DNA from: an uncultured Nitrospinaceae bacterium | GTDB lineage: Bacteria; UBA8248 | Length of the DNA stretch: 56,323 bases | Direction: 5' to 3' | Assembly (NCBI GenBank): GCA_964440505.1 | Contig: CAYTSP010000139.1 | Location: forward strand, 1 to 56,323 | In this document: positions 5,576-8,878 of the stretch, one piece after another | How the letters are laid out: every line of letters begins with the position of its first letter | How positions within the stretch are numbered: the stretch's first letter is position 1 | Translations under genes and position numbers: made by a program | The notes under the pieces: generated by a model | Told to the model about the DNA's origin: nothing | The model's input: the letters and a program-made list of their open reading frames with translations, nothing else | Database searches by the model: none

Positions 5576-8500
5576 CTACCATCGCCTCGCGCCCCTCAGG
5601 AGCAGGTCGCTTTCAGTATCGTCCCCGCCCGCGGGTTCGGTGAGGCTCCCCTCGAGCGCGAGGTCGAAGGCGGGGCCGAGCTTCCAGCGCGCACCCGCGC
5701 GCCAGACCTCGCCGCTCTCCGTGAGCGCCACGCCCGTGTAGGGCGTCAGCAGTCCGCGCCGGAGATCGAAGCCGTAGCCTGCCTCCGCCTCCAGGCTCGA
5801 ACCGGGCTCGAACCCGCCCACGCGCGCGAGGTCCGCCGCCGCGCGCTGAGACCAGAGCCGATCCATGCCCCCGGCCGCAGCGCCCCACGCGGAACCAACC
5901 CGCAGCGAGAGACCCCGGCCCGCAGCGTCCGGAGAATAGCGCACCGAGGCGCTCACGCCCCATTCCTCATAGTCGTTCTCCTCATGCGTCGCGAGTCCGC
6001 GCGCCTGAACGTCTACCGTGAAGCCCCCCGACGCATAGCGCAGCGCGCCGCCGAGTTCGAGACCCGCGCCCCTCTCCGCGTCGCCCCCGTCAAAACGAAG
6101 GCCGAACTCGACCGAGGGCGTGAGCAAGCCCGCCGTGAGCCGCACCTCGCGCGAGGCCTCGAGCGCCAGACGAAACCGGCTCGTGTCGGCTTCCGAAGCC
6201 GCGAGTCCCGCGACCGCGTCCGACTCGCTGCGCACGAACACCAGGTCGCTCCTTAGCGCCAGACGAAAGCCCCCGGCTGCGCGGAGTGCGCCGCGCGCGC
6301 CCGCCGCCGCCATCGACATCGTGAGGTCGGTCTCCACCTGCGCCGCTTCCGCCGGCTTGAGCGTCAGATCGCCCTCGCCGAATCCCGCGGCGCCCCACAC
6401 CGTAAGACGCTCGCTCACCGCGTAGCGCAGGTAGGGGTAGACGCCCGCGAGGCTCGTTTCCACGTCGCCCCGCATGCCCGACTGCTCATAGGAACCCTCC
6501 CCGGAACTCAAGGCGAGCGTCACGCCCATCAGGGCGCGGCCCGATTCGTAGTCCGCCCCCACGAGGCCCGTGGTAACGTCGCCTGTGAGCGTGAACGCGC
6601 CCTCGCGGCCGTCAAAGCCCGCCCGCGCCCCCCGGCCCCACAGCGACCAGCGGGGGTCCGAATCCGTCCTCTCGGCCGAGGCGAGGTGGAACGAACTCGC
6701 CAGGAGCAGTTCGCTCATCGACACCTCCCGCGCGAGCGAATCGCCCTTCCGCCCCGCAAGGCTCCCGCGCCATCCGGCGGGCCGGGGCTCACCGCGAAAC
6801 GCGGCCAGAGCCTCCTCCGCCCGGGCGGGACCGCCAAGCAGCACCTCGCGTCCGCCCAGCGTCACCCGCGTCGGGCCGCCCCCCTCGAGCCGCGCGCCCA
6901 CCGCGTCCAGCACCTGATCGGCCACCGTTCTGCCGAAGCGCGCCAGCCACGCCCGCGGCATCGGGTCGGTGTTCACGATCGTCCCCACGGCCTCGCCGTC
7001 GGCGACCCGCGCGCCCGCGGCGTTCGAGAGACTGAAGCGGAACGTCTCCCGCCCCTCGTCGATCGCGTCGTCGAGCACCGGAACGCTCACCGTCTTCGCC
7101 ACCTCGCCCGCCGCAAACGTCAGCGTGCCGCTCGTCGCCGTGTAGTCCTCGCCCGCCACGGCCGTCCCGTCGGCGGTCGCGTAGTCCACCGTCACCGCGC
7201 TCGAGGCCGCCCGGCTCAACGTCACCTGAAACGCCACCGCCGCGCCCGGCCCCTCGTCGACTTCCGCGTCCGCCACCGTGAGGTGCGCCGGACCCTGCAC
7301 CGTCGCCGACACATCGTTCGAGAGCAACCGGCCCGCCTCGGTGCGCACCGACCCCGCCGGCAGCATCAACACGACGTCCTCGAACGAGGCAGGCTTCACC
7401 ATGATCGTCCAGCGCCGGTTCTCTCCCTGCGCCACGCGCTTCACCCTGCGCACCCGCCCGTTCTTCACCTCCAGCGCCTCGTCCCTAAGCATCTTGTAGC
7501 GAAGATTCCCCGGGAAGTTCTCGCTGAAGCGAAGCTCGAAGCTGAACGCACGCTTGTCGTGCTCCGCAGGCACGCCGATGAACGACGCCGTCAGCGGCGC
7601 CGGCGGACCCGGGCCCGTCGCCCTGTTCTCCACCGCCGCGGGACCGAAGCTCGCGACCGGGAGCCCGTCGGCATCGACCAGCCCCCCGGCGCCGCTTCCG
7701 GGCTTCGAGTAGCTCACCGATACCGTCTGGCCCGCGCGCACCGGCTTCGACAGGATCACGCCGACCTTGTTGTCCTCCCGGAAGGCGCTGCGCGTGACCC
7801 GCGCCGCGCCGTCGACCTCGACGATATAGCGGGAGTGTTCTCCGCCTGACGTCAAGTCCTTGGAGAAGGTGAGCACCACGCGCTTCCCGTCCGCCGGCAC
7901 CGTCGCGCTCACGAACCGGGTCACCACCGGCACCCGCGCCGAGACGGTGTCGGAGAGCACCCGGCCCCCTTCCGTGCACACCGCGCCCGGCGCCGCGCAG
8001 TCCGTTGCCGCCGGCAGCGTCACCGTCACGGCCTCGGACGACGTCGGCTCCACCATGATCGTCCAGCGCTGGTTCTGTCTCGGCGCCACGCGCTTCACCC
8101 GGCGCACCCGCCCGTTCTTCACCTGCAGCGCCTCGTCCCTGAGCAGCTTGTAGCTCAGGCGGCCCGGGAAGTTCTCGCTGAAGCGCAGCTCGAACGTGAA
8201 CAGGCTGCTGCCGTCGTGCTCGGCCGGAACGCCGACGAACGACGCCGTCACGCCCGGCGCACTGCATATCGCCCCGGCAACTTCTTGATAAATACAGTTG
8301 TGGTTTCCAATAGTCCGAGCTAGGCCGGTACGAGGACAATCGATCAGCCGGCTCTCATTTCCCCTGCACTCCACATTATCCAGGTAGATCGGGCCGGTGC
8401 CTTCCCCGAAACGGCTGGGGGATCTGACAATGGGTGTGCCCCCGTGATACCCCAGTTGGCGACACGCGACGGCTGCATCCCGATCGTCCCAAAGATCGTG

Positions 8501-8878
8501 GCACACCGTCCCCCACCGTCCGTTGTGAAAGACCTCGACCCGCCCTTCGAGATCTGAACTCCCGCCCATCAGGCGCAGGCTTCCCGCCGCCGGTTGTTCC
8601 GCAGCATTCGTCTCGCCGACCGGCGCGGCGGCGAGCAGCAGGGGCGCAACGAACACGACCGCAAGCAGGGATGCCGCCGCGCGGCGGACGCGCGGGAAGC
8701 GAAAAAGACGAGAACGGACGCGGGTATCCCCCTGGTGCTGAGAACCGGAACGCGCGGGCGGCGCCTCTCCGGTCAACGGCGCTTCATCCTCGCGTGCGGT
8801 GAGGGCCGGGGCGCCGGTTGCGGGGAAAGAATGACTGTTCATGACGGAGTCCTCCCTGGCCTTATCGTCGGGAAACAT
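5576..8878 (-). CDS. autotransporter (type Va) with an N-terminal SRCR domain, two copies of a ~100-aa module, an Ig-like segment and a Calx-beta domain
   Basis: The signal-like segment is [28 protein letters not shown]. SRCR spans aa ~100-206 ([44 protein letters not shown]...[21 protein letters not shown]...[14 protein letters not shown]) with 6 Cys. Calx-beta spans aa ~532-637 ([52 protein letters not shown]). The C-terminal ~300 aa have alternating beta-strand character and end in ...RGARRW, typical of an autotransporter barrel. An alternative start is MNSHSF at 8842. Confidence 0.85.
   Translation of the reverse strand: [1100 protein letters not shown]

Follow-up and report, generated by a model that had tools for sequence, protein, structure and literature searches.

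An uncultured Nitrospinaceae bacterium (assembly GCA_964440505.1) encodes, on contig CAYTSP010000139.1, a modular surface protein of 1100 amino acids in which an animal-type scavenger receptor cysteine-rich (SRCR) domain is joined to a Calx-beta domain and a C-terminal outer-membrane β-barrel. The gene occupies positions 5576..8878 on the reverse strand of the 56,323-nucleotide stretch analyzed here (hereafter the window) and was defined from the open reading frame (ORF) list, Pfam matches and 564 homologues. The order of modules in the gene product is N-terminal extension, signal-like segment, SRCR domain, Ig-like domain, SWM/Ig-like repeat, Ig-like domain, Calx-beta domain, linker helix and C-terminal β-barrel. 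We consider it probable, at roughly 0.6, that this protein would be exported with the SRCR domain as its tip and would serve in Ca2+-dependent binding to a host or its matrix, or in mimicry of the host.

The SRCR domain comprises residues 100-206 (8261..8581, reverse strand) and was recognized from Pfam, matches to PDB sequences, its cysteines and its G+C content at third codon positions (GC3, 0.63). The Pfam model PF00530 aligned to residues 105-206 over model positions 2-100 of 100 (E=7e-28; 97.3 bits, cutoff 26.1), and phmmer matched the domain to solved single SRCR domains in the PDB at 1e-25 to 1e-33 (neurotrypsin, 2e-33). The PDB sequence matches were CD163, CD5L, CD6, neurotrypsin, LOXL2, DMBT1, SCARA5, MARCO, SR-AI and Mac-2BP. 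No second copy of the gene and no further SRCR domain were found in the window. The six cysteines (C126, C139, C171, C181, C195, and C205) correspond to positions C2, C3, C5, C6, C7, and C8 of the group-B domains of CD163 and DMBT1, and positions C1 and C4 are filled by L110 and Y144, which gives the group-A pattern (groups as defined in PMC10855680). An earlier note on this DNA, made from the letters and translations, had described residues ~100-206 as a textbook SRCR domain with six cysteines at group-A-like spacing, and both parts of that description were confirmed. The cysteine pairs of group A are C2-C7, C3-C8 and C5-C6, and are here predicted from the alignment; the fold, a six-stranded sheet cradling a helix, is presumed from about 50% identity to solved domains. 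All six cysteines were invariant across 46 bacterial SRCR domains, every one of which belonged to group A.

The residues that bind cations in DMBT1 are largely kept. Surface Ca2+ ions of DMBT1 SRCR domains mediate the binding of diverse, mostly polyanionic ligands (Reichhardt et al., PMC7043408); their coordination involves D1019, D1020 and E1086 on the one hand and D1020, D1058, D1059 and N1081 on the other (PMC7043408). The SRCR domain of the window protein was 51% identical to one DMBT1 SRCR domain. Eight cation-site residues were compared (D1019, D1020, D1023, D1026, D1058, D1059, N1081, and E1086; PMC7043408), using a DMBT1 sequence that agrees with every residue number in that report; six were identical, the exceptions being H127 (D1019) and N168 (D1059). 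Among the 46 bacterial domains, the equivalents of D1020 and D1058 were each present in 45, that of N1081 in 44 and that of E1086 in 40, and because these residues are kept, the ligand-binding surface appears to be retained. The domain is like metazoan group-A SRCR domains (MARCO, SCARA5, SR-AI, Mac-2BP, LOXL2, and neurotrypsin) and DMBT1/SALSA in its full-length profile match, in cysteines C2, C3, C5, C6, C7 and C8 and in most cation- and ligand-site residues. It differs from the metazoan domains in being bacterial, encoded within one continuous ORF and fused to a bacterial outer-membrane barrel, and from DMBT1, a group-B protein with eight cysteines, in having the six of group A.

A signal-peptide-like segment (residues 67-92; 8603..8680, reverse strand) was read by eye upstream of the SRCR domain. 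It has a hydrophobic core at residues 67-86 and a likely cleavage site between TNA and AE, directly before the SRCR domain, and it is preceded by an Arg-rich n-region. The claim that the SRCR domain directly follows a signal peptide agrees with this arrangement, but an N-terminal extension of about 66 residues (8681-8878, reverse strand) precedes the core. The leader appears unusually long because of this extension and because no start codon other than TTG, at codon 35, is available from M13 to the core.

The central part of the protein is a chain of predicted adhesin-type modules. The first copy of a module of ~108 amino acids (PLTAxF..PAEHDG..FxFxLxFSE..C..GAxCT) occupies residues 208-316 (7931..8257, reverse strand) and is followed by a SWM_repeat, or bacterial Ig-like repeat, at residues 317-393 (7700..7930, reverse strand; PF13753, E=9.7e-7, 29.4 bits). 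The second copy, detected by hmmsearch at residues 427-527 (7298..7600, reverse strand), is without the Cys pair of the first. The two copies contain a direct DNA repeat of 217 nt with 82% identity (7331-7547 and 7985-8201). The module was found in 232 copies in 95 proteins of the family by hmmsearch, and its AlphaFold model was mostly beta with a predicted local distance difference test (pLDDT) value of 95.8. A search of this model against PDB folds gave no match better than E=0.03, Big_12 matched weakly in 3 of 32 copies, and the module looks like an unnamed domain family. The Calx-beta domain (residues 535-622; 7013..7276, reverse strand) was matched by PF03160 at E=4e-21 (75.7 bits, cutoff 27), in agreement with the earlier note, which had placed it on the same protein and had asked for this Pfam check. 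It is followed by a junction motif and a predicted linker α-helix (residues 632-664, helix 639-664; 6887..6985, reverse strand), delimited from the family alignment and AlphaFold. The motif between Calx-beta domain and barrel was nearly invariant across phyla in the family alignment and could be a processing site, or a plug or linker element of a translocator.

The C-terminal outer-membrane β-barrel (residues ~729-1100; 5579..6694, reverse strand) was delimited with AlphaFold and Foldseek, and the protein ends in RGARRW. Neither PF03797 nor any NCBIfam autotransporter model matched the window protein at E<=0.1, and for the isolated C-terminus OMP_b-brl was the sole match, at a score below threshold. 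A profile built from 11 C-termini of the family found nothing among PDB sequences even at E<=10, and hhalign of the barrel against the E. coli Ag43 β-domain gave a null result. AlphaFold2 was run on residues 626-1100 (the C-terminal 475 aa) with a 51-sequence alignment; the mean pLDDT was 78.8 and exceeded 90 through most of the barrel. The model consists of a 26-residue helix at residues 639-664 (fragment residues 14-39, pLDDT 83-94), a disordered stretch and about 18 long strands that continue to the last residue. By DSSP on the model, these ~18 predicted strands cover 356 residues, compared with 12 strands for type Va autotransporters. The best Foldseek matches were the β-domains of EspP, BrkA, Hbp and NalP (E ~1e-5).

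Homologues connect this barrel to recognized autotransporters. Four of them (P0035, P0364, P0388, and P0431) clear the Pfam threshold of PF03797 at 33-48 bits, and P0035 is 40% identical to the window C-terminus (E=1e-73). The PF03797 matches span the first 90-210 profile positions, and the domain of P0035 runs about 115 aa beyond what the 255-position profile would cover, which fits extra strands. The barrel unit lies at the extreme C-terminus in 143 of 150 family representatives, and 108 of 113 family members finish with an aromatic residue, W or F; the window protein has W. A linker α-helix directly before the barrel, as type Va requires, is predicted at residues 639-664. The window protein has the same order of signal, passenger, linker helix and C-terminal barrel as the type Va autotransporters EspP, Hbp, BrkA, NalP and Ag43, and shares with them the terminal aromatic residue; EspP, Hbp, BrkA and NalP also gave the best, although weak, Foldseek matches. 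Type Va autotransporters have 12 strands and a β-helix passenger, whereas the window protein has ~18 predicted strands and a beads-on-a-string passenger of SRCR, Ig-like and Calx-beta domains; its cysteine-rich passenger, invariant junction motif, lack of a model match and null hhalign result with Ag43 are further differences. Homology to autotransporter barrels is partly supported; it is transitive, and weak at the level of the predicted fold. Of the earlier assignment to type Va, the helix-then-barrel order, the best fold matches and the four homologues that pass PF03797 speak in its favor, but the absence of a model match for the protein itself and the ~18 strands do not. The C-terminal unit is probably a divergent, enlarged, type-V-like translocator.

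The barrel defines a large bacterial family in which the SRCR domain is one of several alternative passengers. An exhaustive HMMER scan of cluster representatives with the C-terminal 475 aa detected 8,307 representatives at E<=1e-3, of which 3,791 had E<=1e-30, and the family proteins ranged from 335 to 3,405 aa in length. Modules were counted among the best 150 representatives. A Calx-beta domain lay directly before the barrel unit in 132 of them, the ~108-aa module was carried by 99 and an SRCR domain by 18; cadherin-like, fn3 and Big domains were among the other passengers in the family, which come in shuffled combinations that also include Ig-like modules. The SRCR domain is an optional cassette on a constant chassis of Calx-beta domain, helix and barrel. 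The Calx-beta domain had also been described as best known from animal proteins. It is real, but it is not evidence of animal origin because it is constant in this bacterial family and is already listed among the eukaryote-like domains of sponge symbionts. Bacterial SRCR domains are not confined to the barrel family, because a stand-alone SRCR protein of 157 aa (P0154; L039, 5001-5474) is encoded beside fn3-rich and Glug-repeat proteins on a gene-dense, bacterial-looking contig of 2.3 Mb.

The relatives of the protein point to sponge symbionts. All family members in the one-genome-per-species collection were in metagenome-assembled genomes (MAGs), the titles of which include Chloroflexi, Alpha- and Gammaproteobacteria, Spirochaetia, Binatia, Nitrospinota, Immundisolibacterales, Arenicellales and Candidatus Poriferihabitaceae. 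The isolate names among these MAGs include SB06xx, APA_bin and RHO1_bin, which we take to be the symbiont sets of Ircinia ramosa, Aplysina aerophoba and Rhopaloeides odorabile, respectively. We infer with good support that the window sequence also came from a sponge symbiont. The MAGs of I. ramosa symbionts are public (PMC9531527). Sponges have expanded SRCR receptors (PMC4772301, PMC10855680), and the sponge Aggregation Factor is built from Calx-beta domains (PMC5400394, PMC11670116). The two domain types of the window protein are thus ones that sponges have also multiplied, for use in recognition and adhesion, but there is no close sequence relationship between its SRCR domain and those of the sponge receptors that would point to recent transfer. 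Eukaryote-like proteins of sponge symbionts, Calx-beta proteins included, are established (PMC9531527, PMC11706023). The window protein resembles these proteins (ankyrin, LRR, TPR, cadherin, fn3, and Calx-beta) in having relatives in sponge MAGs across many phyla and in its animal-type extracellular domains, and Calx-beta, cadherin-like and fn3 modules also occur in the barrel family. It differs from the listed classes in its SRCR domain, which is not among them (PMC9531527, PMC11706023). Our literature search for bacterial or symbiont SRCR proteins found host-side SRCR work only.

The SRCR-coding DNA and the rest of the gene differ in composition. The G+C content was 59.5% for the SRCR-coding DNA and 71.8% for the rest of the gene, as the earlier note had suspected. 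GC3 was 0.63-0.80 over residues 1-206, with the SRCR domain itself at 0.63, and jumped to 0.85-1.0 from residue 207 onward; that of the resident genes of the window was 0.49-0.78. The same pattern was present in a near-identical strain, L028, where GC3 was 0.62-0.65 in each of three SRCR cassettes, 0.84 in the intervening Ig-like domain and 0.89 in the remainder of the gene. In alphaproteobacterial and Immundisolibacterales relatives, the GC3 of the SRCR domain was as high as that of its own gene. In this lineage, then, the history of the SRCR cassettes is not that of the chassis: the SRCR domain is resident-like and the chassis foreign-looking. The proposal of a separately acquired SRCR domain is correct in that its composition differs from that of the chassis, but the outlier is the other 2.7 kb of the gene and not the SRCR domain. 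The earlier note had also held that a domain common in close relatives and of native composition would count against its proposal, and the findings go half of the way toward this: the close relatives P0001-P0009 carry one to three SRCR copies, and the composition of the SRCR domain is resident-like.

The donor of the SRCR domain could not be named from phylogeny, the test that had been proposed for its origin. In a neighbor-joining tree built from 211 SRCR domains, the topology was star-like, the internal branches had lengths of 0.002-0.02 and the bacterial domains formed at least four clusters dispersed among those of animals. The nearest SRCR domains outside the family, sponge-like exons included, were 57-63% identical, and DMBT1-like domains of fish and echinoderms were 55-58% identical. 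A recent transfer from host to symbiont was considered and rejected, the difference between the best sponge-like exon (63%) and a fish DMBT1-like domain (58%) not being meaningful over ~105 positions. Sponge-like SRCR exon arrays (L029, L031, L038, and L040-L042) were found on contigs of 41-45% G+C as up to ~16 one-domain ORFs with short gaps. These tandem ORFs look like sponge-host exons that gene calling on metagenome assemblies had split into individual prokaryotic genes. Short SRCR proteins in the European Nucleotide Archive (P0148, P0151, P0206, and P0185) were rejected as bacterial genes for this reason; four of five examined were in SRCR exon arrays on contigs of 41-45% G+C, the fifth being the bacterial-looking P0154, and a protein identical to P0185 recurred in three samples. 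Sponge-like SRCR exon arrays were also present in samples with close relatives, and array contig L041 came from the same sample as relative genome L033.

The gene is located on a recently inserted island of 4.6 kb (5488..10084) between the convergent genes for PBP1A (3251-5473, forward strand) and FtsY (10399-11385, reverse strand). The blastn breakpoints were at ~5487 and 10085. Three relatives, whose PBP1A is 94%, 81% and 64% identical, lack the island, and in them FtsY follows PBP1A directly with gaps of ~10-400 bp. The PBP1A of the window belongs to a 90%-identity cluster named Nitrospinota/Nitrospinae bacterium, and its more distant named matches were Nitrospinota and Tectomicrobia. The island contains only the surface-protein gene, 1.2 kb of upstream DNA and, at its edge, a truncated Biotin_carb_N fragment (9787..10074, forward strand; 95-aa ORF), which corresponds to the N-terminal part of either a biotin carboxylase or a pyruvate carboxylase. 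The equivalent fragment in strain L028 is 73 aa long and is annotated as PF00289; the fragment may be a remnant of the donor locus. The island is a compositional mosaic, with 72% G+C up to ~8260 and ~47-65% beyond. No flanking direct repeats, integrase or insertion sequence element were found around the island, and an Rfam search of the window gave no tRNA or other match.

The number of SRCR cassettes varies between strains. Strain L028 (amino-acid identities of 98% for PBP1A, 97% for SMC and 95% for FtsY) has the same island at the same site, but its orthologue (8001-12299) has one Ig-like domain more and a total of three SRCR domains. Other proteins of 84-90% identity carry two or three SRCR domains, and P0001-P0009 as a set one to three. 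The single SRCR domain of the window is flanked on its 5' side as copy 1 of L028 is, and on its 3' side as copy 3 is, and it is closest to copy 3 (93% amino-acid identity). Mixed flanks of this kind are the pattern expected from unequal recombination between cassettes. The ratio of nonsynonymous to synonymous substitution rates (dN/dS) against L028 was 0.34-0.9 across the gene and 0.05-0.16 for its neighbors, and the surface protein is evolving much faster than these housekeeping genes; for the SRCR domain and its closest L028 copy the value was 0.34. The passenger at residues 208-530 had a dS of 0.036, about fourfold below that of the flanking housekeeping genes (0.14-0.15), which could reflect extreme GC3 constraint or a more recent exchange of this segment between strains.

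A sigma-70-like promoter, TTGACA-17-TATATT (9114..9142, reverse strand), lies in an AT-rich patch ~235 nt before the ATG and faces the gene. It matches 11 of 12 consensus positions, and two such sites were found where 0.4 were expected; this is a consensus match only. The upstream region 9425-9621 also contains a perfect 19-nt direct repeat, GCCGCTACTCAGGGTGAGG, at 9543 and 9603, and an imperfect inverted repeat of 46 nt (9425-9470 and 9496-9541). Elsewhere in the window, type I restriction-modification genes hsdR and hsdM were present on the reverse strand (40508-43636 and 47856-49460), and hsdR, with a GC3 of 0.84, is a second compositional outlier. A 951-aa protein (35543-38398, reverse strand) gave weak matches to BNR, sortilin-Vps10 and RMC1-like repeats and may be another eukaryote-like β-propeller protein.

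Our proposal is that the barrel would sit in the outer membrane and have the helix inside or below its lumen, and that the passenger would be displayed outside in the manner of type V secretion, with the SRCR domain at the distal tip. The Calx-beta domain beside the barrel may be a first-folding, Ca2+-stabilized domain that drives export. By analogy with DMBT1, the SRCR domain would most likely bind glycoconjugates of the host matrix, the host cell surface or microbes in Ca2+-rich seawater or mesohyl. We propose glycoconjugates because the domain keeps most of the acidic cation cluster that DMBT1 uses for Ca2+-dependent binding of polyanions. The protein could be an adhesin, or it could mimic host SRCR receptors or compete with them, and a Ca2+-dependent adhesin or host-receptor mimic would be the most economical reading because sponges have expanded SRCR receptors and also possess the Calx-beta Aggregation Factor. 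A host-directed role had been called plausible in the earlier note; it has become more so because relatives of the protein occur in MAGs with sponge-derived names and sponges use SRCR and Calx-beta proteins heavily.

Several observations weigh against this proposal. Classical autotransporters tolerate large disulfide loops poorly if these form in the periplasm, and the three SRCR disulfides would enclose loops of 10, 66 and 69 residues. Oxidation may follow export, the larger barrel may be what counts, or there may be no export of the passenger at all. Both the topology of export, for a passenger so rich in cysteine, and the function itself are predictions. The window protein is matched by no autotransporter model, the family profile finds no PDB sequence and the comparison with Ag43 was null; the predicted ~18 strands differ from the type Va number, and the fold matches were weak (target-normalized TM-score 0.5-0.6, root-mean-square deviation ~6 Å), with TonB-dependent receptors and LptD reaching similar E-values. 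The window copy of the SRCR domain has His in place of D1019 and Asn in place of D1059, and the substitution D1019A abolished binding by DMBT1 (PMC7043408). The sponge origin of the window, moreover, is deduced from relatives and not from metadata.

One alternative is that the barrel would be only a membrane anchor, with the SRCR and Ig-like modules retained in the periplasm, oxidized in DsbA fashion and perhaps binding peptidoglycan, periplasmic ligands or envelope partners instead of host material. A cysteine-rich passenger is indeed awkward for a narrow type Va pore, and the barrel is atypical, with its ~18 predicted strands and no model match. A periplasmic location nevertheless seems unlikely to us, given the transitive Pfam Autotransporter matches and the autotransporter barrels as best folds, the linker helix directly before the barrel, the passengers of adhesin-type modules (cadherin-like, fn3, Big, and Calx-beta) in proteins of up to ~3,400 aa, and the fast evolution and copy-number variation typical of exposed proteins. 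The targets of the SRCR domain may also be other microbes or phages instead of the host, in Ca2+-dependent co-aggregation, in biofilm formation within the dense sponge microbiome or as a decoy, much as DMBT1 agglutinates bacteria. Binding to other microbes is a serious rival, and the best placed of the alternatives, although we still regard it as improbable. It gains from the largely kept cation cluster, from the spread of the family over many co-resident phyla and from the sequence VEVFxxxxW, a version of the bacteria-binding VEVLxxxxW of DMBT1 (a motif named in the reference list of PMC7043408). That motif, however, belongs to the conserved SRCR core and is little informative, and nothing in the data separates host from microbial ligands.

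The architecture might also be an artefact, either because sponge SRCR DNA was wrongly assembled with a bacterial gene into a chimera or because the gene is a pseudogene that is decaying on a junk island. The break in composition coincides with the SRCR boundary, arrays of sponge SRCR exons are found in samples of this kind and the island contains a truncated carboxylase fragment. This explanation is largely refuted and is very improbable: the same architecture and locus were assembled independently in L028, and eight more proteins of 84-90% identity came from other contigs. In addition, the frame is intact over 1100 codons, the SRCR dN/dS is 0.34 against the closest copy, a promoter-like site is present and the SRCR domain is 57-63% identical to the sponge-like exons, with a GC3 of 0.63 that is far from their overall G+C content of ~41-45%. 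A bolder version of the proposed exported adhesin, somewhat less probable than binding to microbes and a little more so than a periplasmic location, is that the family forms an undescribed type V branch, in which an ~18-strand barrel with a Ca2+-folding Calx-beta "autochaperone" exports disulfide-bonded, animal-type modules, and in which SRCR cassettes once captured from an animal host are shuffled and varied in copy number, so that sponge symbionts of many phyla could imitate or block host receptors and escape phagocytosis.

How sponges discriminate resident symbionts from food bacteria is a long-standing question, and eukaryote-like proteins are the main candidates, few of which have a defined partner. 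The SRCR domain is a module that sponges expanded as putative microbe receptors, and it is here predicted at the tip of a bacterial surface protein that also contains a Calx-beta domain. The pair offers a concrete, clonable set of domains for the study of recognition between sponge and symbiont. The strain-level island, with its one to three copies of the SRCR domain, constitutes a natural experiment on the evolution of host interaction. More broadly, the analysis reveals several thousand clusters of modular proteins anchored by a barrel, a family that existing autotransporter models largely miss and whose mechanism of secretion may differ from that of classical type Va autotransporters.

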